Source of the DNA: an uncultured Rhizobiaceae bacterium
GTDB taxonomy: Bacteria; Pseudomonadota; Alphaproteobacteria; UBA828
Direction: 5' to 3'
NCBI GenBank assembly: GCA_964429775.1
Contig: CAYSDJ010000011.1
Span: forward strand, 2,692-66,691
DNA: 64,000 nt
Shown here: positions 2,543 through 38,636 of the stretch, in pieces
Layout of the letters: each line of letters opens with the position of its first letter
How positions within the stretch are numbered: the first letter of the stretch is position 1
The notes under the pieces: generated by a model
What the model was told of the DNA's origin: nothing
What the model saw: the letters and a program-made list of their open reading frames with translations, nothing else
The model's database searches: none
Translations under genes and position numbers: made by a program

Positions 2543-2544
2543 CG

Positions 2545-4932: not shown

Positions 4933-4933
4933 C

Positions 4934-8147: not shown

Positions 8148-8155
8148 GACCCTTC

Positions 8156-9268: not shown

Positions 9269-10869
9269 GGTGCGTTTTCCTGGGCTGCGGGTGTTCGCTG
9301 CGCTGCTTGCCGCTCGCCCGCCATCATCAGCCCGAGTGCCTGCTCTGTCGCCTCGCTCTCAGTCACCTCGCCGACGATTTCACCATCGAACATCACCAGG
9401 ATGCGGTCCGAGAGCGACATGATTTCATCGAGTTCGACCGAAACCAAAAGCACCGCCTTGCCCGAATCCCGCATCGCCACGAGGCGGCGGTGGATGAATT
9501 CGATGGCGCCGATATCGACGCCGCGTGTCGGCTGGCCGACAAGCAGAATATCCGGATCGCGGTCCATTTCGCGGCCGAGCACGATTTTTTGCTGGTTGCC
9601 GCCGGAGAAGGCGCCGGTGCGCAGACGCGGCAATGGCGGGCGCACGTCGTATTCCTCCATTTGGCGGCCAACGTCGGCAATCGTTGCGCCATAATCCATC
9701 AGAATCCGGCCATTGTATTTTTCGTCCCGGTGATAGCCGAGAATGCCGCTTTCATTGGCTTCGAAGGACGTCACCAGACCCATGCGCTGGCGATCCTCCG
9801 GCACATGGCCGACACCGGCGGCGCGCACATTGCGCGCACCGCGCGCTGTCGAGCCGGATATTTCCTCGCCCTTGATGCGGATGTGGCCGGATTGCGCCGG
9901 CAGAATTCCGGCCAACGCCTCGAGCAGTTCCGACTGGCCGTTGCCGGCGACGCCGGCAATGCCGAGGATTTCGCCCGCCCGCACGGAAAAGCTGACATTG
10001 CGGAGGCGCGGCAAGCCGCTCCTGTCATTGACGTTCAGACCCTCGACTTCGAGCAGCGCCTCGCCCGGATGCGCCTCGCCTTTTTCGACCCGCAAGAGGA
10101 CAGTGCGCCCGACCATCATGGCGGCCAGATCCTCGCGCGTCGTCTCGGCGGTCATCACTTGGGAAACCACCTCACCGCCGCGCATCACCGTCACCTCGTC
10201 GGTCAGCGCCATAATCTCGCGCAGCTTATGGGTGATCAGAATGATGGTTTTGCCTTGTTCCCTGAGCGCCGCCAGGATGCGGAACAGGTGATCGACCTCC
10301 TGCGGTGTGAGCACGCCGGTCGGCTCGTCGAGAATAAGGATATCGGCGCCGCGATAGAGCGCCTTCAGAATTTCCACCCGTTGCTGCACACCAACCGGCA
10401 GCTCGCCGACAATCGCGTCCGGGTCAACTTCAAGATTGTAATCGCGCTCAAGGCGCTCCAATTCTTCACGCGCCGCCGCCAGGCTCGGCGCCAGCATACG
10501 GCCGCTTTCGACGCCGAGTACGATATTTTCCAGAACCGTGAAGGTATCGACGAGCATGAAATGCTGATGCACCATGCCGATGCCGGCAGCAATGGCGTGC
10601 TCGGGGCCTTTGATTTGCACCGCTTCGCCGCCGACACGGATCTCGCCGCTGTCTGCTTGGTAATAACCGTAAACGACGCTCATCAGCGTCGATTTGCCGG
10701 CGCCATTTTCGCCAATAATGCCGTGGATGGTGCCCGCCGCGACGCGCACATTGACGTTGGAATTCGCGTGAACGGAGCCGAACCATTTTTCGACTCCGAT
10801 GACTTCGAGAGCGGGCGGGGCGGCGCCGGAAGGGGGCGAGGCTCCTCGCCCTGCGTCCGACGCCGCCAT
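9265..10869 (-). CDS. ABC transporter ATP-binding protein with two fused NBDs
   Basis: Walker A GENGAGKST plus a second NBD; RbsA-like architecture. Confidence 0.85.
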   Translation of the reverse strand: MAASDAGRGASPPSGAAPPALEVIGVEKWFGSVHANSNVNVRVAAGTIHGIIGENGAGKSTLMSVVYGYYQADSGEIRVGGEAVQIKGPEHAIAAGIGMVHQHFMLVDTFTVLENIVLGVESGRMLAPSLAAAREELERLERDYNLEVDPDAIVGELPVGVQQRVEILKALYRGADILILDEPTGVLTPQEVDHLFRILAALREQGKTIILITHKLREIMALTDEVTVMRGGEVVSQVMTAETTREDLAAMMVGRTVLLRVEKGEAHPGEALLEVEGLNVNDRSGLPRLRNVSFSVRAGEILGIAGVAGNGQSELLEALAGILPAQSGHIRIKGEEISGSTARGARNVRAAGVGHVPEDRQRMGLVTSFEANESGILGYHRDEKYNGRILMDYGATIADVGRQMEEYDVRPPLPRLRTGAFSGGNQQKIVLGREMDRDPDILLVGQPTRGVDIGAIEFIHRRLVAMRDSGKAVLLVSVELDEIMSLSDRILVMFDGEIVGEVTESEATEQALGLMMAGERQAAQRTPAAQENAP

Positions 10870-10941
10870 GGAAATCTCCCTAAATCTTTCCGTCCGCTCT
10901 CAAGCGCCGCAGCCCGCGTTCAGGCTTGGCGGCGCCCCTCC

Positions 10942-11940
10942 CTACTGCGCCATATAATCCGTCACCGCGATCTTGCCGCCGATGATGTCTTTGCGCGCGG
11001 CTTCGATCTTCGCTTCCATATCGGAGGAGACGAGATCACGATTATATTCGTCGAGTGCAAAGCCGACGCCATCTTCGGCCAGGCCGAGGACCTTGAATCC
11101 ACCTTGCCAGGTGCCGTTCTTGGCCGACATGAAGGCTTCATAGACGGCCACGTCGACGCGTTTGACCATTGAGGTCAGCATGGTGCCGGGGTGGATGTAG
11201 TTCTGGTTGCTGTCGACGCCGATGGCGAGTTTGCCGGCATCCTTGGCCGCCTGATAGACGCCAACGCCGGTGCCGCCGGCCGCCGCATAGACCACGTCCG
11301 CGCCACGGTCGAACTGGCTGCGCGCCAACTCGCCGCCCTTGGTCGGGTCGTTCCACGCCGAGGGGGTCGTGCCGGTCATGTTTTGAAAGACCTCGATATT
11401 GGCATCGACGTATTTCGCGCCTTCGACATATCCGAGCGCGAATTTACGAATGAGCGGAATATCCATGCCGCCGATGAAGCCGACTTTGCCGGTCTTCGAG
11501 GCCAGCGCTGCCGCCATGCCGACGAGGAACGAGCCTTCATGCTCCTTGAAAATCACCGACTGCACATTCGGTAGATCGACGACCATGTCGATCAAGGTGA
11601 ATTTGGTGTCAGGAAATTCTTTCGCCACCGTCTCGACGGCCGCCGCCTGGGCGAAGCCCATGGCGACAATCACCGTGGCGCCGCGCCGCGCCATGTTGCG
11701 CATGGCCTGCTCGCGCTGGGACGGGTTGGTAACTTCGAACTCGCGGTATGCAACGCCGCTTTCCGATTTAAATTTCTCGGCGCCATTATAGGCGGCTTCA
11801 TTAAAGGACTTGTCGAATTTGCCGCCCATATCGAAGACGATGGCGGGCGCGAAATCATCGGCCGCTGCCGGACCCGTGGCGAATGCGCCGGTGACCGTCA
11901 GAGCCAGCGCGGCAAGCGCGCCGATAAATAGTTTTTTCAT
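10942..11940 (-). CDS. BMP-family (basic membrane protein) ABC substrate-binding lipoprotein, probably nucleoside-binding
   Basis: Signal peptide MKKLFIGALAALALTVTGAFA; BMP/PnrA-like similarity; first gene of the deo operon. Confidence 0.85.
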   Translation of the reverse strand: MKKLFIGALAALALTVTGAFATGPAAADDFAPAIVFDMGGKFDKSFNEAAYNGAEKFKSESGVAYREFEVTNPSQREQAMRNMARRGATVIVAMGFAQAAAVETVAKEFPDTKFTLIDMVVDLPNVQSVIFKEHEGSFLVGMAAALASKTGKVGFIGGMDIPLIRKFALGYVEGAKYVDANIEVFQNMTGTTPSAWNDPTKGGELARSQFDRGADVVYAAAGGTGVGVYQAAKDAGKLAIGVDSNQNYIHPGTMLTSMVKRVDVAVYEAFMSAKNGTWQGGFKVLGLAEDGVGFALDEYNRDLVSSDMEAKIEAARKDIIGGKIAVTDYMAQ

Positions 11941-12031: not shown

Positions 12032-12868
12032 TTAGAAGCCTCTGAGCGGCATACTGTGATCACGCTGCAGCCAGTTTTCCGGCAGGTAACGGCAGATTCC
12101 GTCAATCAGGTGAAGCGTATAGGCGTGGCGCGACTGGGCCGAGCGGTTGGCGGCGCTGCCGTGGGGAAACATACCGTCAAATATAATGAGGGTTCCCTTG
12201 GCCACTTCGAGCGGTATGAAGTCATCATCAGGCCAGGGCGTATCGTCGTCGATGATGGTTTCGACGCCGCCGCCCGTTGCACGCAGAAATCGCGATCTGA
12301 GGCCCATGCGATGGCCGCCAGGCAGGCCCCAAAGGCAGCCATTGTCGCGCGTCGCATCCTCGAGCGCGAACCACATGCCGAGCACGCGCGAAGGCTCGGT
12401 GTGCAGAAATGTGGCGTCCTGGTGCCACACGACTTCGCCGCCGATGCGCGGCGGTTTGAATATCACCATGGATTGCAGAATGAGCGGCTCGGCGAGGCCG
12501 GCATCGGTGGCGATTTCGGCCAAGCCTGGCTGGCGCGAGAAAGCATCGAACACCGGATCGAGATCATGCATGGCATGGCCGATTTTGTTGAGCGAGCGCA
12601 TTTTGTCGTGGCGCAAATCGCCATTGGCGTCGAACGCATCCTGCTCGAAGAAAAAACGGATTTTGTCGCCTGAACCCAGGAAGTAATCGTCGCTCGTCTG
12701 CTCCTGTTCGACCGTCGAAAAGATGGATTTCTTTGCCGGCGGCTCGAATGCGGCCACCATCTCGGCCGTCCGCGTGACAAGGGCATCACAGTCCGCATGT
12801 GCAGCGAACTTCTCCAGCACGAGAAATCCGTCGCGCCGATAGTCGCTCAGTTGTTGGCTGTTCAGCAT
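12032..12868 (-). CDS. phytanoyl-CoA dioxygenase (PhyH) family Fe(II)/2OG-dependent oxygenase
   Basis: PhyH-family motifs (WHQD...H facial triad, R for 2OG). Confidence 0.75.
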   Translation of the reverse strand: MLNSQQLSDYRRDGFLVLEKFAAHADCDALVTRTAEMVAAFEPPAKKSIFSTVEQEQTSDDYFLGSGDKIRFFFEQDAFDANGDLRHDKMRSLNKIGHAMHDLDPVFDAFSRQPGLAEIATDAGLAEPLILQSMVIFKPPRIGGEVVWHQDATFLHTEPSRVLGMWFALEDATRDNGCLWGLPGGHRMGLRSRFLRATGGGVETIIDDDTPWPDDDFIPLEVAKGTLIIFDGMFPHGSAANRSAQSRHAYTLHLIDGICRYLPENWLQRDHSMPLRGF

Positions 12869-12940
12869 GATAGCGCTCTCGGGTTACGGGGCCGGGCCAT
12901 ATCGTTATACAATCCGGCACCACACGGAAAGGAAATCGTC

Positions 12941-13984
12941 ATGCGGCTTGGTTTGTTTACGGGCTATTCAGGGCCCAAATTTTCTATCGATATGGATATG
13001 GTGCTCGAGGCCGAGCGTCTCGGCTTCGATTCGGTCTGGACCTCGGAGGCCTATGGCTCCGATGCGGTGACGCCCGCTGCCTGGATGCTGGCGCAAACCT
13101 CGCGCATTAATGTCGGCACCGGCATTATCCAAATGCCGGCGCGCACCCCGGCCTGCGCCGCGATGACGGCGATGACCCTGCAGGCGCTTTCCGGCGGCCG
13201 CTTTATTCTCGGCATTGGTCCCTCCGGGCCGCAGGTGATCGAAGGCTGGCACGGCGTTGCTTACGGCCGCCCGCTGACGCGAACGCGCGAATATATCGAT
13301 ATCATCCGCCAGGCGCTGAAGCGCGAAGCACCCGTTACCCATGACGGCTATCACTATCAACTGCCCTACAAGGGCGCGGATGCGAGCGGCCTCGGCAAGC
13401 CGCTTAAGAGCATCCTGCATGGCGACCCGGCCCTGAAGATTTTCACCGCCGCCGTCGCGCCCGCCGGCATCCGCTTGTCCGCCGAAATCGCCGACGGCAT
13501 GTTCCCGATCTTCATGTCGCCCGAGCGCTTCGATGTGTTCGAAGATGATCTCAACGCCGGTTTTGCCAAGGCTGGCAATGGCAAAGGACTCGCTGATTTC
13601 GAAATTGCGCCCATCGTGCCGCTCGCCATGGGCCCGAGCGTCGAAATGTGCCGCCAACCGATCCGGCGCCATCTCGCACTCTATATCGGCGGCATGGGTG
13701 CGCCGGACAAGAATTTCTACAACGACTACGCCAAGCGCCTCGGCTACGAGGCGGCGGCGGTAAAAATTCAGCAGCTCTATCTCACCGGCAAGAAGAAAGA
13801 GGCCGAGGCCGCAGTACCAAAAGAACTGATCGACTCCATCGCACTGGTCGGCCCCAAAGAGCGTATCAAGGAACGCCTCACGGTGTGGAAGGACGCCGCC
13901 AAGGAGGGCAAGGTCTCGTCGCTCCTCTTAAGTGGCGGCGGCGCACCTGATGCGTTTCGCTTCGTGGCCGAGGAAGTGCTTTAG
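12941..13984 (+). CDS. LLM-class (luciferase-like) flavin-dependent oxidoreductase
   Basis: Start chosen at ATG 12941 behind SD AAGGAAA; bacterial luciferase-like TIM-barrel motifs. The upstream 144 nt of the ORF were rejected. Confidence 0.75.
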   Translation: MRLGLFTGYSGPKFSIDMDMVLEAERLGFDSVWTSEAYGSDAVTPAAWMLAQTSRINVGTGIIQMPARTPACAAMTAMTLQALSGGRFILGIGPSGPQVIEGWHGVAYGRPLTRTREYIDIIRQALKREAPVTHDGYHYQLPYKGADASGLGKPLKSILHGDPALKIFTAAVAPAGIRLSAEIADGMFPIFMSPERFDVFEDDLNAGFAKAGNGKGLADFEIAPIVPLAMGPSVEMCRQPIRRHLALYIGGMGAPDKNFYNDYAKRLGYEAAAVKIQQLYLTGKKKEAEAAVPKELIDSIALVGPKERIKERLTVWKDAAKEGKVSSLLLSGGGAPDAFRFVAEEVL

Positions 13985-13985
13985 T

Positions 13986-15452
13986 TCACATCCCGAGCGC
14001 GCCCGGGTTCATCAAACCACGCGGATCAAGGCGCTGCTTGAGCGCGCGGATGTTTGCTTCCGCCAAATACGGATAGAGCTTTCCGCTTTGCATGTGTGTT
14101 GCGCCGAGCTCGGCAAAAAGCGCAATCACATCCTGGCGTATTTCCATTACCGCATGGCGGGCTTCCGGGTTGGCAGGATTCTTGCCATAGCGGGCACGCT
14201 GTTGGTCGCTAACATTATGCAGGTGAAACTGCGAGAGGCGGTCGGGCCAGAAGAATTGCGGCTCGTATAGGATTTGACCGCCGATCAGAACGGTGAGGAA
14301 CGCGACACGAATTTTATGCTGTCGTAATTGCGCCCACTTTTCCTTGAAAAATGTTTCCGTACGTTGAACCAACCGTTCGGCCTCGCCGTGCGGCACGATG
14401 GCGTGGACCGGCAGCCAGTTTTCGCCGTTTGGGCCGAGCAAAGCCTTGATCGGGCGGAACGGCTTGGCGCGGGTGACGCGCGGGATAGTATCGGGAAGCG
14501 GGGCGCCGCCCGCCTCCATGGCACAGGCGGTGAGGTGCGCCACAGCCGCCGAATTATCTTCGACCACGGCATGCAGGGAATATTGCAAATCCTTCATGCG
14601 CGTCACTTGCGCGGCGGTTTTGATCGCCTGGCCAATCCCTTGCGCGCGTGCCACATCGCCCAGTGCCGACATCCCTTCAAATAAGTTGAAGCCGCTCTTT
14701 CCCAGATTGCGGTGGCTCTCTGGATCAAAACCGAAACACTCGGCCAAGCCAGACGTGTTTGCCATAGCGCCCTGGGCACGGAGCAGGTCGGGATAATCGT
14801 CGAAAGCGAATGAGGCGAAGGCGCATTCGCGCGGCACGGGGATGAGTTTCAGGGTGATGGTGGCCTTGATGCCGAGAGCGCCGGCATCGCCGATGAAAGG
14901 CGCGGGATTGCCGGGTTGGAACAGCGTGCCGTCGGCGCCGATAATTTCCAGGCCGAGCACGCTCTCGCACATGCTGCCATGGCTGGCCGAGCCGAAGAAG
15001 GCGGCGTTCTGCGCAGCGCTGCCGCCGATTGTCGCCTGGATACCGGAGAGCGGGCCGAAAAAAGGCGTGCGCAATTTCTGTTCGCTAAGCGTGTCGTAAA
15101 GCTGCTTCCAGGTGCAGCCGGCCTGTGCGGTGACGTATTTCTTATCCGCGTTGATTTCGACAATGCGGTCGAGCCTGCGCATGTCGATGATGACGGAGCG
15201 TTCGCGCGTCGGCACATAGCCCTTCGAATAGGACATGCCGCCGCCGCGCGCGAGGATTGCCAAATCCATTTCCGCCGCCGCACGCACACAAGCGGCCAGC
15301 TCATCCACGTTGCCCGGCTGCAACACCAGTGCGGCGATGGCATCACCGCCGCCGGATATATCGGTGGAAAAATATTCGCGTTGCACCGCGTCTTCGACAA
15401 CATGCTCTGGCCCGATGAGCGCGCGGAAATGCCCGGCAATTTCCGCAGCCAT
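13986..15452 (-). CDS. FAD-linked oxidase (GlcD/FAD_binding_4 family)
   Basis: FAD_binding_4 N-terminal domain plus FAD-oxidase C-terminal fold. Confidence 0.75.
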   Translation of the reverse strand: MAAEIAGHFRALIGPEHVVEDAVQREYFSTDISGGGDAIAALVLQPGNVDELAACVRAAAEMDLAILARGGGMSYSKGYVPTRERSVIIDMRRLDRIVEINADKKYVTAQAGCTWKQLYDTLSEQKLRTPFFGPLSGIQATIGGSAAQNAAFFGSASHGSMCESVLGLEIIGADGTLFQPGNPAPFIGDAGALGIKATITLKLIPVPRECAFASFAFDDYPDLLRAQGAMANTSGLAECFGFDPESHRNLGKSGFNLFEGMSALGDVARAQGIGQAIKTAAQVTRMKDLQYSLHAVVEDNSAAVAHLTACAMEAGGAPLPDTIPRVTRAKPFRPIKALLGPNGENWLPVHAIVPHGEAERLVQRTETFFKEKWAQLRQHKIRVAFLTVLIGGQILYEPQFFWPDRLSQFHLHNVSDQQRARYGKNPANPEARHAVMEIRQDVIALFAELGATHMQSGKLYPYLAEANIRALKQRLDPRGLMNPGALGM

Positions 15453-15455
15453 GTG

Positions 15456-16982
15456 TCAGTCGCTTTCGCGCAAGCTTCGTTTCAATATCTTGCCCGCCGG
15501 GTTGCGCGGCAGGGCGTCGATGAAGGCGATATCCTTTGGCACTTTGTAAGGCGCCAAATTTTCCTTGGCAAAGGCGGTGATGTCTTCAGCACCCGGAGTA
15601 TCCTCATCGACGGCGACGACAAAGGCCTTCACCCGCTCGCCCCAATAGTCATCTTTCACGCCGACCACGGCGGCTTCCGAAATGCCGGCATGTCGGATCA
15701 GCACTTCCTCGATTTCGCGTGGATAGATATTGACGCCGCCGGAGATAATCATGTCCTTCTTGCGGTCGACGAGGAAGACATATCCTTCCTCGTCGCGCCG
15801 CGCCATGTCGCCGGCCGTAACCCAGCCGTCGCGGACGATGGCGGCTGTTTCCTCCGGCTTGCCCCAATAGCCGTTAAAGAGATAGGGCGAGTTGCTGTAA
15901 AGTTCGCCGACCTCGCCTTGGGCGACATCCTGGCCGCCGCCATCGAGCAAACGGATACGGGTGCAGACGAAGGGATGGCCGACGCATTGAATTTTGCGCA
16001 GTTGATCGGGCGGGCGCAGATTGGTGACGATGCCGGCTTCGGTCGAGCCATAGGTTTCGTGCAGCACGCCTTCGCCGAATTGCGCGACGATGGCTTCCTT
16101 GGTCGCCTGCGGCAGGGCTGCGGCATTCGAGATCAGGCTGGTGAGATGGTGCTGGCGGTAGCGCTCAAGGATGGCATTTTCGAGCGCCAGGATTGCGTGG
16201 TAATGGGTCGGCACCATGAAGGTGCCGGTGAACGGTTCCTCATGCAGCCGGCGCATGATCTCTTCCGGATTGAAGGCCGGCAGCACCTCGCAAAAACCGC
16301 CGAGAAAAACGCTGCCCATGGCAAAGGCGAAGCCGCCGCCATGGAAAAAAGGCGCCACGCCGAGATAGCTGTCTTCCGGCCCGTAGCAGCCATATTCCGA
16401 CGCCATGGCGAGAAAGGTCATCACCCGCGAGCGGTGCGAGAGAACGATGCCCTTGGCCTGGCCGGTGGTGCCGGAAGTGTAGGAAATGGCAAACGAGTGG
16501 CGCTCGTCCACCGCCACTTCGGGCGCCTGCGGTTTGGCGCTGGCGATCCAATCTTCATAATCGTCGCCAAGAATAAGCACGCCTACGGGTTTGGCGAGGC
16601 CGGCATCGCGCACGGCCTCCTCCACCGCCGGGTGGGCGATGACGATACGCGCCGCGCAATCCTCGGCGATGGCGGCGATCTCACGCGCCGTCTGGCGTGG
16701 ATTGATGGTGGCGACGGCGACACCCACCTCGGCAAAGCCGGCGACGATCTCGATATATTCGAGGCAGTTGGGCGCCAGCAGCATGACATTGTCGCCAGGC
16801 CTGAGGCCAAGGTCGTGGTGCGCGGCATTGGCGACGCGGTCGATGCGCTCGACTAGCTGGGCATAGCTGAGCTCGCGTGCGCCTTCTCTGAGGGCGACCT
16901 TATTCGGCGTGCGTTCAGCCGAAGTGCGCACGCCGGAGGTAATGGTGACGGGGCGGTAGCTGTTTATCCCGTTGTCGGCCAT
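15456..16982 (-). CDS. AMP-dependent acyl-CoA synthetase/ligase
   Basis: SYTSGTTGQAKG AMP-binding motif, GYWGKPEET, PAGKILKR; start at ATG 16982. Confidence 0.85.
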   Translation of the reverse strand: MADNGINSYRPVTITSGVRTSAERTPNKVALREGARELSYAQLVERIDRVANAAHHDLGLRPGDNVMLLAPNCLEYIEIVAGFAEVGVAVATINPRQTAREIAAIAEDCAARIVIAHPAVEEAVRDAGLAKPVGVLILGDDYEDWIASAKPQAPEVAVDERHSFAISYTSGTTGQAKGIVLSHRSRVMTFLAMASEYGCYGPEDSYLGVAPFFHGGGFAFAMGSVFLGGFCEVLPAFNPEEIMRRLHEEPFTGTFMVPTHYHAILALENAILERYRQHHLTSLISNAAALPQATKEAIVAQFGEGVLHETYGSTEAGIVTNLRPPDQLRKIQCVGHPFVCTRIRLLDGGGQDVAQGEVGELYSNSPYLFNGYWGKPEETAAIVRDGWVTAGDMARRDEEGYVFLVDRKKDMIISGGVNIYPREIEEVLIRHAGISEAAVVGVKDDYWGERVKAFVVAVDEDTPGAEDITAFAKENLAPYKVPKDIAFIDALPRNPAGKILKRSLRESD

Positions 16983-16989
16983 GTTGCGT

Positions 16990-17850
16990 TTAACCGCTTT
17001 CCGGCAGGTTGAAGATGCGCAGTGCATTGCCGCGCATCAGCAGTTCCTTGGCTTCCGATTTGATATCGAGTTCGGCGATCTCCGCCATGGCGCGCTCCGG
17101 ATCAATCACCGGCCAGTCGGTGCCGAACAGCACCTTCTTGCGGCCATAGCTGTTGAGATAATGGACGATCTCGGGCGGCCAATAGCGCGGCGCATAGGCA
17201 TCGACGCCGATAAAAATATTCTCGTGTTTCCACGCCATGGAGATCATCTCTTCCGTCCACGGCACACCAATATGAATGCCCAAGAGGCGCAGCTCGGGAA
17301 AATCGATGGCCACCTGATCGAGGCAGATCGGCCGCCCGACGCTGGGCAGGCGACGCTCACGCGAATAGACCAGATTGTGGCCGACCTGCATCATGATCGG
17401 AATGTCGAGCTCGCAGCATTTGGCGTAATAGGGATAGACCAGGCGGTGGTCGGGCGCCAGGCCGAACCAATGGGGATAGAAATGCGCGCCGACAAAGCCG
17501 AAATCGCGCACCGCTTCTTCCAGATCCCTGAGGCCCTGCATGCCGCGCGTCGGGTCAACGCCGGCGAGGCCGGAGAAGCGGTCGGGATATTGCTGGCAGA
17601 TGTCATGCACGCGGCTATAGGGGATTTCGAACGAGCCCTTGACCATCAAATCGCCGGCGCGCACCGCGATTAAGAGCGAGCGCTGGATGCCGGCGCGGTC
17701 CATGCGGCCGAGATAATTCTCGATCGATACGCCGCCGCGCATCTCCTCGGGCATGCGGATCTGCGCTTTGAAGGTCTCATCCAGGCCGGTCTGGCCGAGC
17801 CGCACTTCCTCCTCGGTGAAGAGATTGACGACAATATCGATGGCGTTCAT
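16990..17850 (-). CDS. amidohydrolase-2 family metal-dependent hydrolase/decarboxylase
   Basis: PF04909-like GTDWP motif; start ATG 17850 behind SD AAGGAG. Confidence 0.75.
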   Translation of the reverse strand: MNAIDIVVNLFTEEEVRLGQTGLDETFKAQIRMPEEMRGGVSIENYLGRMDRAGIQRSLLIAVRAGDLMVKGSFEIPYSRVHDICQQYPDRFSGLAGVDPTRGMQGLRDLEEAVRDFGFVGAHFYPHWFGLAPDHRLVYPYYAKCCELDIPIMMQVGHNLVYSRERRLPSVGRPICLDQVAIDFPELRLLGIHIGVPWTEEMISMAWKHENIFIGVDAYAPRYWPPEIVHYLNSYGRKKVLFGTDWPVIDPERAMAEIAELDIKSEAKELLMRGNALRIFNLPESG

Positions 17851-17863
17851 GTTTTCAGCTCCT

Positions 17864-19690
17864 TCAATCCTCAGCGCCCGCAAAGTCACCTTCGGTCACC
17901 CGCCAGCAGCGGATTTCACGCCCGTCCGGCATGGCGCGAAGTTCCTGTGCCATGTCGGCGCAGGCGTCTTTTTGGCTTGGGCAGCGGCCATAAAGATAGC
18001 ACCCTTTGGGCAGCGACACAGGGCTCGGAATCTCTCCTTCCAGGGTGATGCGCTCAGTGTGGTCGACGCGGCGGTCGGCGATATCGGGGAAAAGGTGCGA
18101 CGCGAGCAGCGCCTTCGAATAGGGATGGCGCGGCTCGGCGAAGACCGCATCCTTATCGCCGACTTCGACGATTTGCCCGAGATACATGACAATCACGCGG
18201 TGGCAGATCACTTTCACCGTGGTCAGATCGTGCGAGATGAAGAGATAGGCGAAGCCGAGCTTGCGCGACAGTTCCATCAACAGCTGGATGATCTCGACCC
18301 GCGTTTCCGGGCTGAGGGCCGAAGTCGGCTCATCGAGAACGATAAATTCGGGATTGGTCGCGATGGCGCGTGCGATCACCACGCGCTGCTGTTGTCCGGC
18401 GCTGAGCTGGCGCGGTTGGTCGTTTCGGAGCGCCGCATCGAGGCCGACCATTTCGAGCAGTTCCGCCACCCGAGTGCGTTTCTCCTGCGGGCTCATGTCG
18501 GTGTGCAGATCGAGCGGTTCGGTTAGCACCTTCTCCACCGTCCAGCGCGGGTTCATCGAATCGAACGGATCCTGAAAAACGATCTGGATCGCCTTGCGGT
18601 AAGGTACGAAGGCTGAGCGTTTGATGGCGCCGAGGGCGGTGTCGTGAAACATAATCTCACCCGCGGTCGGCTCTTCGAGGCGCACCAGACAGCGCCCGAC
18701 GGTGGTCTTGCCCGAGCCGCTTTCGCCGACCAGGCCGATCGCCTCGCCGTGCCTGATATCGAACGACACATCATCGACCGCATGCACCTTCTGGTCGCTG
18801 CCGCGGATGGGGAATTGTTTATAGAGGCCGGCGACGCGGATGATGGTCTCGGCATCGCTGAGCTCGCCGTGATGCGCTTCGCCGGAGGTATCGCCGCCCT
18901 CCTGACGCTGGGTGGTGAGAATGCGCCGGCTGTAATCCTGCTCGGGCGCCTGGAAGAATTGCTGTACCGGCGCCTCTTCAATGATGCGCCCCTCAGCCAT
19001 GATCAACACGCGGTCGCAATAATTGGCGACGATACCGAGGTCCTGGGTGACCAGCAGCACCGCCGAGCCGGTTTCATTCGCCGTCTGCCACATCTGGTCG
19101 AGAAATTGCGCCTGGATGGTGACGTCGAGGCCGCTGGTTGGCTCGTCGGCGATCAGCAAGCGCGGCTTCGAACTCATCGCCATGGCGATCAGCACGCGCT
19201 GGGTCATGCCGCTCGACAGTTCATGCGCGTGCGCCTTGACGCGGCGTTCCGGGTCGTTCATGCCGACCATGCGCAGCATGCTGATAGCGTGCTGCCACGC
19301 CTCTTTCTTGCTCACCTTGTTGTGCGCCCGGTAGACGCGCGAAATCTGGTTGCCGACTGTCAGCATGGGATGGAGCGAGGTGCGTGGGTTTTGTACGATC
19401 AGGCCGATATCCTTGCCACGGATGGCGGCGATCTCGTCATCGTTCATGGCGAGGAGATCCTGGCCGAGAAACTGCACGCTGCCGCCTGAAATCTCGCCGG
19501 GCGGGCGCACCAGGCCCATCAGGGCTATGGCGGCGGTCGATTTGCCGCAACCGGGCTCACCCATGATGCCGACAAATTCGCCTGGCCGGATGATGAGGGA
19601 AAAATCATCGACCGCAACCGTCTCGCCGTCTTCCGTGCCGGCAAAGCGCACCGTCAACCCGGCTGCCTCAAGGATCGGCTCGGTGCTCAT
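17864..19690 (-). CDS. ABC transporter ATP-binding protein, two fused NBDs (DppD/DppF-like)
   Basis: Two Walker A motifs ([18 protein letters not shown]); conserved start [12 protein letters not shown] at ATG 19690 overlaps the permease stop (ATGA). Confidence 0.85.
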
Positions 19691-20598
19691 GCTTCGCGGA
19701 ATTTCTGTTCGATGGCATGACCAACGATGGCATAGCCGAACACGGTTATGGTGATGGCCAGGCCGGGAAAAATCGACGGCCACCATTCGCCGAGAATGAG
19801 CTGCTGCGCGCCGATCGAGATCATGATGCCCCATTCGGGCGTCGGCGGGCGTACCCCGGCGCCGACGAAACTGAGGCCCGCTGTCAGGATAATGGCGAAG
19901 CCGACGGTTACCGACAATTGCACCAGCGAAGGCACCAGCGAATTGGGCAGCACATGCTTGACGGCGATCTTGAAGCCGTTATTGCCGACCGCCCACGCCG
20001 CCTGGACATAACCACGCGCGCTCTGGCCCATCACTTCCGAGCGCGTCAGGCGTATGAAGATCGGCGTGTAGACGAGGGCCAGGGCGAGCACCAAATTTCC
20101 GGTCTCGCGCCCGGCGAGCGCGACCAGAATCATCGCCGTGATGAACACCGGAAAGGCCTGCAGCACATCCGAGACGCGCATCATCAGCTCGGTCGCCCAA
20201 TTGCGGTAGAAGCCGGCGATGAGGCCAAGAAAGGTGCCAAGAAAGAGCGAAATCAACGCACCACCGAGGGCAATCGACATATCGGCGCGCGGCGCCGAGA
20301 TCACGCGCGAGAACACATCGAGCCCGGATTGATCGGTGCCGAACCAGTGCGGCGGCTGTTCCAGCTCGCCCGCGACGGCGAGATAGAAGAGGCGCGGCCA
20401 ATCTTCGATGGGTGGCGGCGGCACCGAAATATCGCCGGTCGCCTCCATTGGGTCGTAGGGGCTGATGGCAGCGCCGAAGGCGGCGAGAAAGATGGAAAGC
20501 GCGACGATAGTGCCACCGAAGATGAGATATTTCTTGCCGCTGAATCTGTCGAGGCGGGCAAAGCGCCGGCGTGGGGGAGCGCTCTCAGCGATAGTCAT
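19687..20598 (-). CDS. ABC transporter permease (DppC-like)
   Basis: BPD-transporter inner-membrane fold. Confidence 0.8.
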   Translation of the reverse strand: MTIAESAPPRRRFARLDRFSGKKYLIFGGTIVALSIFLAAFGAAISPYDPMEATGDISVPPPPIEDWPRLFYLAVAGELEQPPHWFGTDQSGLDVFSRVISAPRADMSIALGGALISLFLGTFLGLIAGFYRNWATELMMRVSDVLQAFPVFITAMILVALAGRETGNLVLALALVYTPIFIRLTRSEVMGQSARGYVQAAWAVGNNGFKIAVKHVLPNSLVPSLVQLSVTVGFAIILTAGLSFVGAGVRPPTPEWGIMISIGAQQLILGEWWPSIFPGLAITITVFGYAIVGHAIEQKFREA

Positions 20599-20613
20599 GC
20601 CGGCGCCCCCACA

Positions 20614-21636
20614 TTAATACTGCACCCGGGGATCAAGATAAGCGTGGATGATATCCAGGAGGAGATAGATGAAGAGCGAGAGCAGCGCCACCGTCAGCAC
20701 CACGCCCTGGATCGCCGGATAATCGAACGAGAGGATCGAGCGGATGGCATATTGGCCGATGCCGCTCAGTGAAAACACCAGCTCGACCGTTACCGCCGCG
20801 CTCAGCAGAATCATGTAGAAGATGCCGACCAAGGTGACCGCCGGGGTGAGCGCGGCGCGGAGCGCATAGCGCCCGACTTCTTTCTTGGAGAGGCCGTTGG
20901 CGCGCGCATAGAGGATGTAATCCGAGGCCAGCGCACGCACCATATTCTGGCGCACCATCTTGGTGATGGCGCCCGAGATGACGAACACCAGCGTCGCCAC
21001 CGGCAGCATCAGGTGATAGAGCACCGAAACAAAGACATCGAAGCGCCCAAGCAAGATTGAATCGATCGTCAGGAATCCGGTGATAACGCTTGGCCGCGAC
21101 ATCATCGGATCGATGCTGCCCATCGGCGGCGGCGCCACGCCGAGAACGAAAAAGAAGACGAAGACAAACAGCAGCCCCCACCAATAATCCGGCTGGGCGC
21201 CGGCGAACATGCCCCATATGAGCGCGATCTTGTCGGCGATGCTGCCCGGCTTGGTGGCGCTCGCCATGCCGAGCGGAATGGCGATCAGGAAGGAGAGCAG
21301 CAGGCTGAAGGTGACAAGTTCGAGTGTCACCGGCAGGAAGCGGCCGATCTCGAGAAAGACCGGCTCGTTGGTCACCCACGAGATGCCGAGGCTGGCATCA
21401 ACCAGGCCCGGATCCTCGGAAAAGCCGAGAAAGACCGAGAGCTGTTCGAAGATGGATTTATCGAGGCCCAGCGATTGTTCGGCCTGTTTATAGGCTTCCT
21501 CGCTGGCGTTGAGGCCAACCAGACCGGCAACCGGATCGGCCGGCAGAAGGCGGATCAGGAAAAAAACGACAAGCGAGACGCCAAGCAATTGAAAGAATGC
21601 GATGATGACGCGCCGGAGGATGAAGCGGCCAATCAT
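20614..21636 (-). CDS. ABC transporter permease (DppB-like)
   Basis: BPD-transporter inner-membrane fold. Confidence 0.8.
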   Translation of the reverse strand: MIGRFILRRVIIAFFQLLGVSLVVFFLIRLLPADPVAGLVGLNASEEAYKQAEQSLGLDKSIFEQLSVFLGFSEDPGLVDASLGISWVTNEPVFLEIGRFLPVTLELVTFSLLLSFLIAIPLGMASATKPGSIADKIALIWGMFAGAQPDYWWGLLFVFVFFFVLGVAPPPMGSIDPMMSRPSVITGFLTIDSILLGRFDVFVSVLYHLMLPVATLVFVISGAITKMVRQNMVRALASDYILYARANGLSKKEVGRYALRAALTPAVTLVGIFYMILLSAAVTVELVFSLSGIGQYAIRSILSFDYPAIQGVVLTVALLSLFIYLLLDIIHAYLDPRVQY

Positions 21637-21690
21637 CGGGCAGGCTCTAGCGCACCACGGCGATCAACTTGGCGGCGGGCAGTGACAGGA

Positions 21691-22311
21691 TCACTTATTG
21701 CCCTCGCCCCAGACCGCGAGCACTTCATCTTTCTCGACGATTTTGGCGAACATCCAGGCCATGCCGGCGATGGCGCCGTCATAGCGCATTTGTTCGAGCT
21801 CGCCGGTGGCGTCCTTGACGACGAATACCTTGTAATCGCGCTCGCTCGCGTCGCGCACCGTCGATTCGACGCAAATATTGGTGGTGACGCCGCAGACCAC
21901 CAGCGAATCGACATCGAGGCCGTTCAGAATCGGTTCGATATTGGTGGCGTAAAAGGCGCTCGGCCGATTTTTGTCGATGACGAACTCGCCGTCGACGGGC
22001 TCGAGCAGGTCGATGATTTCGATATCCTTGGTGCCGGCGGCGAGCGAATTCACATCCTTCAATTGCGGCAGCAGATAGCGGATGACGACGCCGCCATCGG
22101 CATAATCGGCGCGGTAGACATAGCGCGTGAAAATCACCGGCACGCCGGCCCGGCGGGCGGAATCGAGCAATTCGCGGCACGGCGTCACGGCGCCAACGAG
22201 GGGTGAGATATCAAGCCCGGCGCCGGCGAGCGAGCCGTCATCGGCACAAAAGGCGTTCTGCATGTCGATGACGACCAGCGCCGTGCGCTCGGTCTTCAGC
22301 TCCATCTCCAT
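21691..22311 (-). CDS. isochorismatase-family cysteine hydrolase
   Basis: ALVVIDMQNAF start and VVCGVTTNICVEST catalytic Cys region. Confidence 0.8.
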   Translation of the reverse strand: MEMELKTERTALVVIDMQNAFCADDGSLAGAGLDISPLVGAVTPCRELLDSARRAGVPVIFTRYVYRADYADGGVVIRYLLPQLKDVNSLAAGTKDIEIIDLLEPVDGEFVIDKNRPSAFYATNIEPILNGLDVDSLVVCGVTTNICVESTVRDASERDYKVFVVKDATGELEQMRYDGAIAGMAWMFAKIVEKDEVLAVWGEGNK

Positions 22312-22321
22312 ATTTTGTTCC

Positions 22322-22364
22322 TCTAAAAGAGGCAGGGAGGGCGGCAGGCCGCCACCCTCCCTGC
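22322..22364 (-). terminator. stem-loop plus U-tract (intrinsic terminator or attenuator) after the binding-protein gene
   Basis: Minus-strand transcript GCAGGGAGGGUGGCGGCCUGCCGCCCUCCCUGC followed by UCUUUUAGAGG. The isochorismatase SD and ATG follow immediately. Confidence 0.5.
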
Positions 22365-22379
22365 GGCGCTCCCTACGCT

Positions 22380-24077
22380 TTATTTCGCCGGCTTCAAATC
22401 ATGCAGGCGAAGCGCGTTATCCGGGTGCCAGACCATGCCGGTAACGTTGGCCGCCGTCGCCCAATGGGTGCGGAATTCAAGGATCGGCACGACCGCCAAA
22501 TCCGTCATCAGCTGCTCCTGGATTGCCGCCAGCATCTCATTGCGTTTGTCGTTGTTGCCTTCAGCGAGTGAGCCGTAGAGCGTACCGTCGACCATGTCGC
22601 TCGAATAGTTGGACGAGTTGAGAATGCCGCCCTTGTTGCCCGAAACATAACTGAGGAGGGTGCCATAAGCCGCATCGACGCCAATCGGTTTGACATGCGC
22701 CGTGAGGCCCATCGGCAGGTCCTTCTTGACCAATTCCCGGTCGCCATATTGTGCCTGGGGAATTGGATCGAGCTCGACATTTATACCGACATCGCGGAAG
22801 GCGGTGTGAAGGATCGTCGCGGTCGGTCCCAATTCCGATTCGCGCTCCAGCATGTAGCTCAGTTTGAAGGCATCGGGAAATGCCTCCAATCCTGCGCCGC
22901 CCGCATAGCCGGCCTCGGCGAGCAGCGCCTTGGCCTTTTCCGGATCGTAATCATATTGCGTGCTGGTCTTGTGGAAGCCCGGATAGGTCGAAGGCACCAT
23001 GCCGGCCCACTTGTGCGCTTTGCCGAAATAGCTCGTATCGATGATTTTCTGATACGGCACCGCGTGAGCAATAGCCTGGCGCACCAAGGGGTTGTCGAAG
23101 GGCGGAGAGCTGAAATTGAGAATCATGAACATGTTCTCATTGCCCTGCACGCCGACCACGCTGACATTCTTCGCTTTCGAGAGATTGTCATATTCCTTGG
23201 GCGTCAGATGTTCGGCGATCTGAGCGCCGCCGGAGCGCAATATGGCCACGCGGTTGGCACTTTGCGGCACCTTGCGCACCACCACCCGGTCATAGACCGG
23301 GGCGCCGCGGTAATAATCCGCATTGCCGGTCATCGAAAAGCTTTCGCCCTTGCGCCACTCATTGAGACAATAGGGGCCGAAGCCGGCAATGCCGACATTG
23401 TTGGCGTAAGTATGGCTCCACGGATCGTCCTCGGTGGCGTTGGCCTCCATGGTCTCCTTGTCGAAGATATAGAGGGCAAAAATCGACAGCACCTTGAGGA
23501 ACAGCTGATTGGGTGCGGATTGGCGAATTTGCACCGTGTAATCGTCGATCTTCTTGACTTCGTCGCCGAGCTTGCGTGCTGCAGCGCCATCGTCGGTCGG
23601 TGCAAACACGGCCGGCGTGAAGCCGTCGACCGAACCGGTGCTGGCAAGGAACCAGCCGATCGGCGCGGAGCCGCTAACCGATTTTGCCCGGGCGAAGGTA
23701 TAGAGCACGTCATCGGCATTGAAGGTGGCACCGTTGCAGCCTTTCACGCCTTTGCGCAGATTGAAGGTCCAGGTCAGCGAGGCGGCGTCGAAGCTCCACG
23801 ATTCGGCAAGCCGGCCCTCGAATTTATTGAAGTCGAGAAGCTGCACACCATCCTCATTAACAGCGCCCTTGGCGTGGTAGACGAGCGGGTCGAGCATATT
23901 ATCCCAGCCCACCCAGTTGGTATCGACGGATGCGGTCGCTCCGTCATAATTCAAACTCACCGGCACTTCCTCGCTGAGGATCAGCAAATCCTCGGCATGG
24001 GCAGTGCCGCTCAGGGCCGCGCCGCCGATACCGGCGGCAGCGACAATCGATAGGACAGAACGCGGTAGCCATTTCAT
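22380..24077 (-). CDS. ABC substrate-binding protein, family 5 (peptide/opine/nickel type)
   Basis: Signal peptide plus SBP_bac_5 similarity. Confidence 0.85.
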   Translation of the reverse strand: MKWLPRSVLSIVAAAGIGGAALSGTAHAEDLLILSEEVPVSLNYDGATASVDTNWVGWDNMLDPLVYHAKGAVNEDGVQLLDFNKFEGRLAESWSFDAASLTWTFNLRKGVKGCNGATFNADDVLYTFARAKSVSGSAPIGWFLASTGSVDGFTPAVFAPTDDGAAARKLGDEVKKIDDYTVQIRQSAPNQLFLKVLSIFALYIFDKETMEANATEDDPWSHTYANNVGIAGFGPYCLNEWRKGESFSMTGNADYYRGAPVYDRVVVRKVPQSANRVAILRSGGAQIAEHLTPKEYDNLSKAKNVSVVGVQGNENMFMILNFSSPPFDNPLVRQAIAHAVPYQKIIDTSYFGKAHKWAGMVPSTYPGFHKTSTQYDYDPEKAKALLAEAGYAGGAGLEAFPDAFKLSYMLERESELGPTATILHTAFRDVGINVELDPIPQAQYGDRELVKKDLPMGLTAHVKPIGVDAAYGTLLSYVSGNKGGILNSSNYSSDMVDGTLYGSLAEGNNDKRNEMLAAIQEQLMTDLAVVPILEFRTHWATAANVTGMVWHPDNALRLHDLKPAK

Positions 24078-24210
24078 GATGCAACCTCCCCGATGGAATT
24101 TATTTCCTGTGCCGCTCCTGTCCCCGGTGGATTGGGGCTATTGACGGCTTATTTCGTTGCTTCATCCTAGCGCCAGTTGGGCTGAACGCAACAGGTATGG
24201 AGAACGAGTT

Positions 24211-25011
24211 ATGCGAGCCGTCATTATCGGGCTGGGCGCGATTGGGCGCATGATCGTGGATGGATTGGCGGGCGATGAGTCTCCGGTCCGTCTCACCGGT
24301 GTGGCCGTGCGCCCGGCGCGCGCGGCTGAGGCGCGGGCGGAATTGGCCTCCGATATCGCCGTTTTCACCTCGGCTGAGGAAGTTATCGCCGCCCGGCCCG
24401 ACATGGTGGTGGAGTGCGCCGGGCAGGCGGCGTTGCGCCAATATGGGGAATCCGTGCTCGCCGCCGGCCTCGATCTCATGGTGGTGGCGACCGGCGCGTT
24501 AGCGGATGGCGATTATCGGGTGCGCTTGATGGCGGCGGCGGAGAAGGGCGGCGCGCGTCTGCATGTACCGGCCGGCGCCACCGCCGGGCTCGACGGCCTC
24601 GGCGCGCTCAAGGCCGGCGGCCTGGACAAGGTCACCTATGTCTCGACAAAACCGAGCCATGCCTGGAAGGGCACGCCGGCCGAGCAGGCGTTTGATTTGG
24701 ATAGCCTTGGCGAGAGCACAGTGATCTATGAGGGCCGGGCCGAGGCGGCGGCGCTCGACTATCCGCAGAACGCCAACCTCGCCGCGACCATCGCGCTGGC
24801 TGGCGCCGGTTTCGACAATACCTTCGTCCGCCTGGTGGCGGATCCCCATGCGGAGGTTAATTGTGGCCGCATCGAAGCTGAGGGAAAGTTCGGCCACATG
24901 ATCATGGAAATGCGCGGCAAACCGATGGCGAGCAATCCCAAGACTTCTGCCGTAACGGCGCTGAGTTTGATTTATGCGCTGAACAAAGAAAAAAGTAGGT
25001 TTGTAATTTAG
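24211..25011 (+). CDS. aspartate dehydrogenase-family (NadX-like) NAD(P)-dependent dehydrogenase
   Basis: MRAVIIGLGAIG Rossmann start at ATG 24211; Asp-DH C-terminal domain similarity; divergent from the catabolic cluster. Confidence 0.7.
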   Translation: MRAVIIGLGAIGRMIVDGLAGDESPVRLTGVAVRPARAAEARAELASDIAVFTSAEEVIAARPDMVVECAGQAALRQYGESVLAAGLDLMVVATGALADGDYRVRLMAAAEKGGARLHVPAGATAGLDGLGALKAGGLDKVTYVSTKPSHAWKGTPAEQAFDLDSLGESTVIYEGRAEAAALDYPQNANLAATIALAGAGFDNTFVRLVADPHAEVNCGRIEAEGKFGHMIMEMRGKPMASNPKTSAVTALSLIYALNKEKSRFVI

Positions 25012-35082: not shown

Positions 35083-35101
35083 AGTCTGTTTCTCCTGCCG
35101 C

Positions 35102-38571: not shown

Positions 38572-38636
38572 GGCTCTATCCTCGCGCTAATAAATTTGTC
38601 CGGCCTGTGTATCACGCCGGTCGGGTGGGTTTCGAC

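Follow-up and report, generated by a model that had tools for sequence, protein, structure and literature searches.

The subject of this study is a 64,000-nucleotide (nt) stretch of DNA from an uncultured Rhizobiaceae bacterium, hereafter the window, and in particular the genes located at positions 12032-25011. A preliminary description made from the sequence alone had read these genes as one oxidative catabolic cluster. We find instead that the region is a composite in which an eight-gene operon lies between genes that are unrelated to it, and not a single pathway. The operon encodes a Dpp-type ATP-binding cassette (ABC) importer, an isochorismatase-family cysteine hydrolase, a non-canonical Amidohydro_2 protein (AH2), an acyl-coenzyme A (CoA) synthetase (ACS) and a flavoprotein, and its unrelated neighbors are a PHYHD1-type Fe/2-oxoglutarate (2OG) dioxygenase (PhyH), a luciferase-like monooxygenase family oxidoreductase (LLM) and a member of the aspartate dehydrogenase family (AspDH). 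The eight-gene block is present, decayed or absent at one chromosomal site among related marine alphaproteobacteria. Taken together, the existence of the eight-gene operon, its insertion or deletion status at this site and the exclusion of PhyH, LLM and AspDH from it are conclusions that we hold with high confidence. The "13-kb regulator-less oxidative pathway" of the preliminary description is an artefact of treating adjacent units as one.

Gene organization of the region

The gene map was built from an open reading frame (ORF) listing with guidance from the GC content of third codon positions (GC3), families were assigned by Pfam and NCBIfam scans, and start codons were adjusted by homologue lengths and family alignments. 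All coordinates are positions within the window (Table 1), and the operon strand is the minus strand. Every gene family named in the preliminary description was recovered where it had been placed, with some details revised. The isochorismatase-type gene, described as following the importer genes, is actually located inside them between the binding-protein and permease genes, and both LLM and AspDH, which had been called divergent, score above the cut-offs of their families.

Genes at 12032-25011 sit on both strands and comprise at least four transcription units. PhyH (12868 to 12032) is transcribed divergently from LLM and AspDH divergently from the binding-protein gene, while the plus-strand LLM gene and the flavoprotein gene are convergent with a 1-nt gap (13984/13986). 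AspDH and an EamA-like gene form a second convergent abutting pair (25011/25012) in which, as in the LLM/flavoprotein pair, the stop codons are 0-1 nt apart. A terminator has no room at either junction, and the convergent transcripts should therefore overlap. PhyH, LLM and AspDH thus lie in transcription units separate from the operon, an arrangement that the preliminary description had itself named as incompatible with its reading. Within the operon the gene junctions range from a 4-nt overlap to a 15-nt gap, apart from two wider spacers of 68 nt, 3' of the binding-protein gene, and 54 nt, 3' of the hydrolase gene.

Table 1. Features of the operon and of its neighborhood, in window coordinates
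Feature	Position	Strand	Evidence or remarks
Eight-gene operon	13986-24077	-	Order: binding protein, hairpin, cysteine hydrolase, DppB, DppC, DppDF, AH2, ACS, flavoprotein
Divergent intergenic region	24078..24207	.	Presumed operon promoter and AspDH promoter block ATTGACGGCT..TTCGTTGC.TCATCCTA
Family-5 (Dpp/Opp-type) periplasmic substrate-binding protein, first operon gene	22380..24077	-	PF00496 255 bits
GC-rich hairpin followed by CUCUUUU	22332..22364	-	13-15 pairs, -41.1 kcal/mol, z = -2.95
Isochorismatase-family cysteine hydrolase (amidase), within the transporter genes	21691..22311	-	PF00857 156 bits
DppB-type permease	20614..21636	-	PF00528 and PF19300
DppC-type permease	19687..20598	-	PF00528
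Fused DppD/DppF ATPase (DppDF), two ABC domains	17864..19690	-	PF00005 twice and oligo_HPY
AH2, non-canonical Amidohydro_2 (COG2159-type), 290 aa	16990..17862	-	PF04909 135 bits, profile positions 68-289 only
ACS, ANL-family acyl-CoA synthetase, 508 aa	15456..16982	-	PF00501 255 bits and PF13193 75 bits
FAD_binding_4 (GlcD/VAO superfamily) flavoprotein, last operon gene	13986..15452	-	PF01565 120 bits, N-terminal half only
LLM oxidoreductase, Rv3520c subfamily, neighbor	12941..13984	+	TIGR03559 391 bits vs cut-off 335
AspDH, aspartate dehydrogenase family (NadX-like), neighbor with its own conserved promoter	24208..25011	+	NF009828 281 bits vs cut-off 177
PhyH, PHYHD1-type Fe/2OG dioxygenase, neighbor	12032..12868	-	240 bits vs human PHYHD1 (2opw)
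Nucleoside uptake/catabolism operon, neighbor	18..11940	-	Pfam

The operon is an accessory block at one chromosomal site

We collected 83 AH2-anchored loci from metagenomes and from one-genome-per-species contigs and searched them by tblastn with every window protein; neighboring genes were clustered across loci and representatives of the clusters were annotated. The neighbor calls come from a crude ORF picker and single co-occurrence cells may be wrong, so the counts relied on below are those of tblastn. A second collection, anchored on PhyH, supplied loci L089 and L090. Among the 83 AH2 loci, PhyH, LLM and AspDH are confined to the four nearest relatives of the window (L001, L002, L004 and L005), with none of the three present in the 79 more distant loci. 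The neighborhood and co-occurrence check that had been suggested for the whole gene set upholds the eight-gene block and separates PhyH, LLM and AspDH from it: co-occurrence outside the genus-level clade is limited to the eight minus-strand genes, and L089 sets the flanks apart.

In L089, whose PhyH is 74% identical to that of the window, AspDH and LLM are adjacent and co-directional with a 158-nt gap (4927-6929), and tblastn detected none of the eight operon genes between these flanks. The AspDH-LLM pair of this locus is divergent from a series consisting of PhyH, Bmp, ABC, cdd, purine nucleoside phosphorylase (PNP) and thymidine phosphorylase (TP) genes. A different state is exhibited by L001, L002 and L100, where the order is AspDH / hydrolase-AH2-ACS-flavoprotein / LLM / PhyH and the binding-protein, permease and ATPase genes are missing. 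The flavoprotein gene of L001 (12411-13910) contains an in-frame stop (…EINEQ*KFVI…), and the flavoprotein is called as pieces of 103 and 339 aa in both L001 and L002, which are two separate assemblies. Its designation as a pseudogene rests on this one in-frame stop, translated in L001, with the matching split calls in the two assemblies as support. In the L001 lineage AH2 retains 93% identity to its counterpart in the window.

The block next to AspDH, ATTGACGGCT..TTCGTTGC.TCATCCTA, is kept in the window, L001 and L089 irrespective of upstream content. With this promoter-like block conserved in all three locus states, the AspDH promoter is independent of the operon. Additionally, three independent metagenome assemblies from the same organism as the window (L092, L093 and L094, binding-protein gene 100% identical) end about 510 nt into DppC, near window position 20090, which suggests a strain-level breakpoint or population-level variation inside the transporter. 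The eight-gene block is an accessory element bounded by the LLM stop codon and the AspDH promoter, where it was either gained by insertion or lost variably, and LLM and AspDH are its native flanks.

These observations bear directly on the preliminary reading, in which all genes at 12032-25011 form one oxidative pathway where PhyH and LLM oxygenate an imported nitrogen-containing carboxylate, ACS activates it, the hydrolases cleave it and AspDH dehydrogenates it. The genes are indeed contiguous, the nearest relatives (L004, L005 and L112) share their order, and the enzyme families are chemically compatible. However, the genes are divided among at least four transcription units on both strands, PhyH, LLM and AspDH are missing from every distant AH2 locus, and L089 keeps AspDH-LLM and the PhyH-nucleoside operon without any of the eight genes. 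The AspDH promoter is moreover independent of the block, and the PHYHD1-type PhyH stays linked to Bmp transporters in L089, from which the operon is missing, and in the distant L090. The single-pathway reading is largely refuted by this evidence and we regard it as very improbable. What survives of it, for the eight-gene operon though not for the 13 kb as a whole, is the grouping of importer, amide hydrolase, CoA ligase, Amidohydro_2 protein and flavoprotein.

The AH2-ACS pair and the flavoprotein

AH2 is the most conserved gene of the module. Its longest ORF (299 aa) is over-extended relative to the true protein of 290 aa; an exact-protein look-up using the over-extended ORF returned no match, and there is no NCBIfam match to AH2. 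The top structure match is the uncharacterized protein BB4693 (3irs, 76 bits), followed by LigW, LigJ, gamma-resorcylate decarboxylase (gamma-RSD), ACMSD and LigY. By sequence, AH2 shares a TIM-barrel family with BB4693 and with the COG2159 Amidohydro_2 proteins, which include LigW, gamma-RSD, ACMSD, the LigJ hydratase and LigY. AH2 is 72-82% identical across the 79 distant loci, which come from Alpha- and Gammaproteobacteria and a Binataceae genome, and the median identities over distant loci are 76% for AH2, 51% for ACS and 41% for the flavoprotein. Relatives of AH2 are encoded in at least 544 species-representative genomes, and over 6,000 database proteins are related to it at E <= 1e-20. 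Plasmids of Variovorax, Comamonas, Rhizobium and Roseomonas also carry paralogues, about 50% identical and again paired with an adenylate-forming enzyme.

The metal site of AH2 is degenerate when positions are assigned from what we take to be the ligand sites of LigW and ACMSD. The first His of AH2 is at approximately residue 82 and strand 1 reads IDIVVNLF; the strand-1 HxH is absent because no His occurs within roughly the first 80 residues. A Gln following DIPIMM aligns with the strand-5 His of LigW, which follows DQPLYI, while the strand-6 His (GIHIG) and the strand-8 Asp (GTDWP) are retained. AH2 therefore falls short of the canonical Amidohydro_2 set of strand-1 HxH or E..H, strand-5 His and strand-8 Asp, and it differs from the COG2159 members in having no strand-1 HxH/ExH and in the replacement of the strand-5 His by Gln. 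Obligate pairing with an ANL ligase is an additional trait of AH2 that is not found in characterized COG2159 members. Despite its degenerate metal site, AH2 probably belongs to the decarboxylase/hydratase/C-C-hydrolase branch of Amidohydro_2.

The ACS start codon is located 7 nt past the AH2 stop codon, and of the 77 loci with enough flanking sequence, 70 have ACS directly 3' of AH2 in the same orientation. ACS has the features of an ANL-family enzyme, with YTSGTTGQAKG, YGSTE and DRKKDMIISGG motifs and an intact A10 Lys (PAGKILKR). Its closest families are PRK06187, FadD5 and the feruloyl-CoA and malonyl-CoA synthetases, none at an equivalog cut-off; the top family match is to medium- and long-chain fatty-acid ligases, and the malonyl-CoA synthase score is 277 bits against a cut-off of 558.

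The flavoprotein can be assigned, from its sequence, only to the wider superfamily of vanillyl-alcohol oxidase (VAO) and p-cresol methylhydroxylase (PCMH). Its PDB matches extend over residues 3-230 only and comprise 3pm9, glycolate oxidase, D-lactate dehydrogenase, D-2-hydroxyglutarate dehydrogenase and PCMH. No C-terminal Pfam domain was found (there is no FAD-oxidase_C), the GlcD score is 82 bits against 568, and the protein does not qualify as a GlcD or D-2-hydroxyacid dehydrogenase. A LDPRGLMNPGALG motif is present at the C-terminus. The flavoprotein accompanies AH2-ACS in 21 of the 79 distant loci at 36-45% identity.

An interpretation that we consider unlikely is that AH2 and ACS constitute an uncharacterized, obligate two-protein catalytic unit, distributed over hundreds of proteobacterial species, in which the degenerate-site AH2 works directly with the ligase on amide-, imide- or lactam-derived acids. 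In such a unit, AH2 may act on the acyl-adenylate or acyl-CoA, or may supply an unstable acid to the ligase.

AH2 loci in other organisms

The order binding protein-hydrolase-DppB-DppC-DppDF-AH2, with identities of 65-82%, recurs in L047 and L056. In L047 the cassette is preceded by genes for a GntR regulator and a glucose-methanol-choline (GMC) oxidase and there is no ACS, and the L056 cassette continues with ACS, an alpha/beta-hydrolase and the flavoprotein. A hydrolase-anchored metagenome search yielded an alternative order in L125 (DppB-DppC-binding protein-hydrolase-DppDF followed by AH2), as well as four loci (L117-L119 and L124) with the hydrolase inside a Dpp-type transporter and no AH2. 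A further arrangement, in L105, reads hydrolase-Amidohydro_2-ADC-AH2-ACS-CN_hydrolase-flavoprotein.

Alphaproteobacterial loci typically have the arrangement IclR / AH2-ACS-(double alpha/beta-hydrolase)-flavoprotein-(enoyl-CoA hydratase). Their transporters are of the TAXI-type tripartite ATP-independent periplasmic (TRAP), SsuA, Liv or Dpp types, and tripartite tricarboxylate transporters (TTT) also occur in AH2-ACS loci. Amide enzymes in other AH2-ACS loci are isochorismatase-type hydrolases, CN_hydrolases and caprolactamase-like HyuAB, sometimes with two per locus, and further partners include proteins resembling HMG-CoA lyase, CaiB-type CoA transferases, acyl-CoA dehydrogenases, MmgE/PrpD and proteins resembling acetoacetate decarboxylase. 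The recurring themes are amide cleavage, CoA-ester chemistry typical of short or dicarboxylic acids, and regulators and transporters of the organic-acid type. A plasmid DNA search with the whole region found only short ABC and ligase fragments and no homologous cluster.

A protein of about 550 aa with a double alpha/beta-hydrolase fold is regularly found 3' of ACS (L045, 12477-14126, and 14 other loci). Where the nucleophile elbow GxSxG would be expected in its first half, the sequence reads GTHTG.

A set of 26 gammaproteobacterial loci has a different organization, membrane protein / DUF4437 bicupin-AH2-ACS-DsbA-like-type II dimethyl sulfoxide (DMSO)-reductase-family alpha subunit. This alpha subunit of a Mo enzyme is EbdA-like and carries a twin-arginine translocation (TAT) signal (for example L037, 9000-15900; range L012-L081), and neither beta nor gamma subunits were seen in this arrangement. 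A major facilitator superfamily (MFS) transporter, a second Amidohydro_2 protein with a TAT signal and usually a CN_hydrolase are encoded nearby. The DUF4437 cupin, DsbA-like and DMSO-reductase-family context was considered as a substrate clue and pointed to none.

The variety of these contexts raises the question of whether the importer and the AH2-ACS pair belong to one process. They may instead be two units that are merely co-transcribed, a generic peptide or amide importer with its hydrolase on the one hand and AH2-ACS-flavoprotein on the other, the latter acting on a different acid that is endogenous or separately imported. AH2-ACS pairs elsewhere are accompanied by TRAP, TTT, SsuA-type or Liv-type transporters or by none, the transporter-embedded hydrolase exists without AH2 in L117-L119 and L124, and paralogues of the binding protein serve other contexts. 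However, two independent gene orders (L047/L056 and L125) place AH2 after the transporter, loss of the transporter in L001 and L002 is accompanied by the stop codon in the flavoprotein gene, and the hydrolase remains with AH2 after that loss. We consider a division into two separate units unlikely.

Absence of a regulator

The statement in the preliminary description that no transcriptional regulator is encoded in or next to the cluster is correct locally. Pfam detected no DNA-binding regulator among window ORFs from 18 to approximately 40400, and the small ORFs outside the Pfam scan, which by synteny correspond to a cytidine deaminase and an HSP20-family protein, include no regulator. The 130-nt promoter region, which is 85% identical to that of L004, contains no inverted repeat or operator and has no Rfam match, and across the whole window Rfam reported neither a riboswitch nor a leader. 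As a trait of the module, however, the absence does not hold, since orthologous modules elsewhere usually carry an IclR or GntR regulator. The missing regulator is thus a peculiarity of this lineage.

The importer and the cysteine hydrolase

The operon has the complete components of a PepT-type (Dpp/Opp) importer, with SBP_bac_5, two BPD_transp_1 permeases, and two ABC domains with oligo_HPY encoded together. Its parts list is that of the Dpp/Opp/Gsi (PepT-family) importers with a cluster-C family-5 binding protein, from which it differs in that both ATPases are fused into one polypeptide and that a gene for a cysteine hydrolase separates the binding-protein gene from those of the permeases. 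The fused ATPase likely starts at M49 of its longest ORF, overlapping the DppC stop codon. The binding protein begins with a signal peptide that ends ...GTAHA/EDLL. Among solved structures it matches 5u4o best (126 bits) and DppA with approximately 106 bits, and it has no NCBIfam equivalog at cut-off, the best being Opp4A with 125 bits against 650. Orthologues that are 69-71% identical occur in the same cassette in L047 and L056, and paralogues of 56-63% identity are found in unrelated contexts with GMC oxidoreductases and short-chain dehydrogenases.

The stem-loop that the preliminary description had reported 3' of the binding-protein gene does exist (22364-22332 on the minus strand). Located in the 68-nt spacer, it is the sole strong hairpin of the region and looks like a partial terminator or an mRNA stabilizer. 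A hairpin 3' of the binding-protein gene is a classic arrangement for over-production of the binding protein in binding-protein-dependent operons. In L001, a hairpin remnant persists upstream of the hydrolase gene though the binding-protein gene is gone.

The cysteine hydrolase is a clear PF00857 member with a score far exceeding the gathering cut-off of 27 bits and a catalytic triad of D16, K114 and C147 in the contexts VVIDMQN, IDKNRPSAF and TTNICVEST. It is below the equivalog level for BiuH (121 against 370 bits) and for RutB (113 against 378 bits). Matches in the PDB are 3irv, biuret and triuret hydrolases, RutB and N-carbamoylsarcosine amidase, with 68 bits to NicF (3ot4) and 39 bits to PncA. 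Its closest named relatives (BiuH, TrtA-like, RutB and N-carbamoylsarcosine amidase) all act on carbamoyl or ureido amides, and the gene remains beside AH2 in L001, L002 and L100 despite loss of the transporter. The fold and the D-K-C triad are shared with BiuH and TrtA (biuret and triuret), RutB (ureidoacrylate) and N-carbamoylsarcosine amidase, although the scores of the hydrolase are one third of the equivalog cut-offs for BiuH and RutB. The creatinine/N-methylhydantoin route likewise uses an isochorismatase-type hydrolase, together with ATP-dependent ring opening by HyuA/HyuB, a combination also seen in related AH2 loci. Unlike the Rut, Atz and creatinine systems, the operon is without their partner genes and its hydrolase is instead coupled to a CoA ligase.

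The location of the operon, approximately 2 kb from a nucleoside operon, invites a reading as a Rut-like pyrimidine-base branch of nucleoside catabolism, with a RutB-like hydrolase, LLM as the monooxygenase and ACS acting on 3-hydroxypropionate or malonate. The scores of the hydrolase to RutB and of ACS to malonyl-CoA synthase agree in direction with such a scheme, but neither comes near its cut-off. RutA is not among the matches of LLM, which falls in the Rv3520c subfamily, and the RutC-G genes are absent. The proximity is also lineage-specific, as the block is missing in L089 and nucleoside genes are absent from every other AH2 locus. A Rut-like branch is extremely improbable.

Proposed function of the operon

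The operon has about an even chance of being an accessory, strain-variable unit for the uptake and first-stage catabolism of a small amide- or ureido-carboxylic acid. The Dpp-type ABC system would import the amide- or ureido-carboxylate, and the hairpin may keep mRNA of the binding protein above that of the downstream genes. In the cytoplasm the cysteine hydrolase would remove the amide or carbamoyl nitrogen, releasing ammonia or carbamate. AH2 may then carry out a hydration, decarboxylation or ring opening on the acid so formed, probably an unsaturated or dicarboxylic one, and ACS would trap the product as a CoA thioester. The GlcD/VAO-type flavoprotein may oxidize a hydroxy or alkyl position, with the product presumably passing to beta-oxidation-like or central metabolism encoded elsewhere. 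This chemical outline is tentative, and we judge it rather more apt to be wrong than right.

Several points weigh against the proposal. No operon protein reaches an NCBIfam equivalog cut-off, matches among solved structures go no further than generic family members, and literature searches returned no paper on the module. Three of the four canonical metal ligands are missing in AH2, so that the protein may have a different chemistry or no catalytic role, and an AlphaFold model of AH2 based on an 11-sequence alignment was too poor to use (predicted local distance difference test score, pLDDT, of 54). Paralogues of the binding protein occur in unrelated contexts, and its ligand class is therefore unreadable from family membership. 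AH2-ACS pairs are partnered with many transporter types and the 26 gammaproteobacterial loci are quite different; thus the pair may serve different pathways, or its neighbors may partly reflect shared ancestry. Finally, the order of the enzymatic steps is pure inference.

An alternative is that the operon degrades an aromatic or heteroaromatic amide (nicotinamide-, picolinamide- or salicylamide-like) by a route resembling pic/nic or CoA-dependent aryl-acid catabolism, with AH2 as a non-oxidative decarboxylase or carboxylase whose reaction, unfavorable by itself, would be pulled by ACS. With the exception of BB4693, the solved relatives of AH2 use aromatic or conjugated carboxylates (LigW, gamma-RSD, 2,3-dihydroxybenzoate (2,3-DHB) decarboxylase, ACMSD, LigJ and LigY). 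ACS is about as near to feruloyl-, 4-chlorobenzoyl- and benzoate-type ligases as to fatty-acid ligases, the flavoprotein has PCMH/VAO-type matches, and other AH2 loci include IclR regulators as well as the bicupin and DsbA-like genes. The pic cluster combines an Amidohydro_2 decarboxylase (PicC), an isochorismatase-type maleamate amidase (PicF/NicF) and an alpha/beta-hydrolase (PicE/NicD). An Amidohydro_2 protein and an isochorismatase-type amidase are also present here, and an alpha/beta-hydrolase is added in relatives of the operon. However, the operon has no ring-hydroxylating or ring-cleaving oxygenase. In contrast to pic/nic clusters, it is without a hydroxylase, ring-cleavage dioxygenase and maleate isomerase and has a CoA ligase and a VAO/GlcD-type flavoprotein. 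The metal ligands on which all the decarboxylases in question rely are missing from AH2, the hydrolase is nearer to ureido-amidases than to NicF or PncA, and the best family match of ACS is to medium- and long-chain fatty-acid ligases. An aromatic route is quite unlikely.

Characterized pathways were also compared directly. The Rut, biuret/cyanurate, creatinine and nic/pic pathways were rejected on equivalog scores below cut-off or missing defining partner genes, and Ent-type 2,3-DHB metabolism, staphylopine-type metallophore uptake and demethylation of dimethylsulfoniopropionate (DMSP; DmdBCD) were rejected on sub-cut-off equivalogs or missing partner genes. The earlier statement that the gene set matches no well-known pathway stands for the operon, for which the family scans and literature searches gave neither an equivalog nor a published counterpart. 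It does not extend to PhyH, which by sequence belongs to a characterized demethylase family.

A beta-oxidation set is located 9 kb from the operon (33289-40400) and consists of a 597-aa acyl-CoA dehydrogenase, a FadB-like protein of 777 aa, a thiolase and a second acyl-CoA synthetase. This set could receive the CoA product of the operon.

Neighboring genes

PhyH aligns end to end with human PHYHD1 (residues 2-274 against 4-285, E = 3e-70), including the HxD...H iron ligands (HQDA and a distal His). PHYHD1 and related PF05721 enzymes were reported in 2025 to carry out 2OG-dependent demethylation of free 2'-O-methyl nucleosides, with active bacterial members of the family from Sphingomonas, Poribacteria and Acidisoma (PMC12709175); that article does not discuss a nucleoside-operon gene context. 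Full-length likeness and the HxD...H ligands are shared by PhyH with the PHYHD1/FJS demethylases, PhyH being known here from sequence. PhyH is located 91 nt upstream of a Bmp-type nucleoside ABC importer, and its adjacency to Bmp recurs in L001/L002, in L089 and in the more distant L090 (66% identity), where PhyH lies 7 nt after an AMP nucleosidase gene. The nucleoside operon encodes a Bmp binding protein, an ABC ATPase, two permeases, a cytidine deaminase (inferred by synteny with L001 and L089), PNP, a DeoC-like aldolase, an aldehyde dehydrogenase, TP and a phosphopentomutase. On the basis of its PHYHD1 homology and its place at the head of this operon, PhyH is probably a 2'-O-methyl-nucleoside demethylase that feeds modified nucleosides to the nucleoside operon.

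The TIGR03559 subfamily, to which LLM is assigned by score, is nominally F420-dependent, and no distant AH2 locus has either LLM or AspDH. These two genes, side by side in L089 and split by the 10-kb operon in the window, might form a functional pair, and a link to formaldehyde from the putative demethylase next to them is conceivable. Elsewhere in the window, the GC content falls to 0.55-0.57 at 40000-46000 and 54000-56000, compared with approximately 0.62 in the remainder. ORFs scanned in and around these dips encode ispG, an alpha/beta-hydrolase, a ferredoxin reductase and ThrS.

Implications

Operons that join an ABC importer to catabolic enzymes, as this one does, are very common. Its distinctive part is the AH2-ACS pair, by its abundance, its unequal conservation and the degenerate metal site of AH2. 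The pair is unusually constrained and is common among bacteria of marine, sponge, lichen and soil origin. As its partners include amidases of several types and diverse transporters, solving one instance would annotate hundreds of loci. For the neighboring gene, the presence of PhyH at the head of a nucleoside operon would provide independent genomic-context support, in bacteria, for a 2'-O-methyl-nucleoside demethylase function of the PHYHD1 family. The AH2-ACS pair might reveal a nitrogen-yielding route for small organic amides. If AH2 and ACS do act as one catalytic unit, the pair would represent a new entry route into CoA-dependent metabolism for amide-, imide- and lactam-derived acids.

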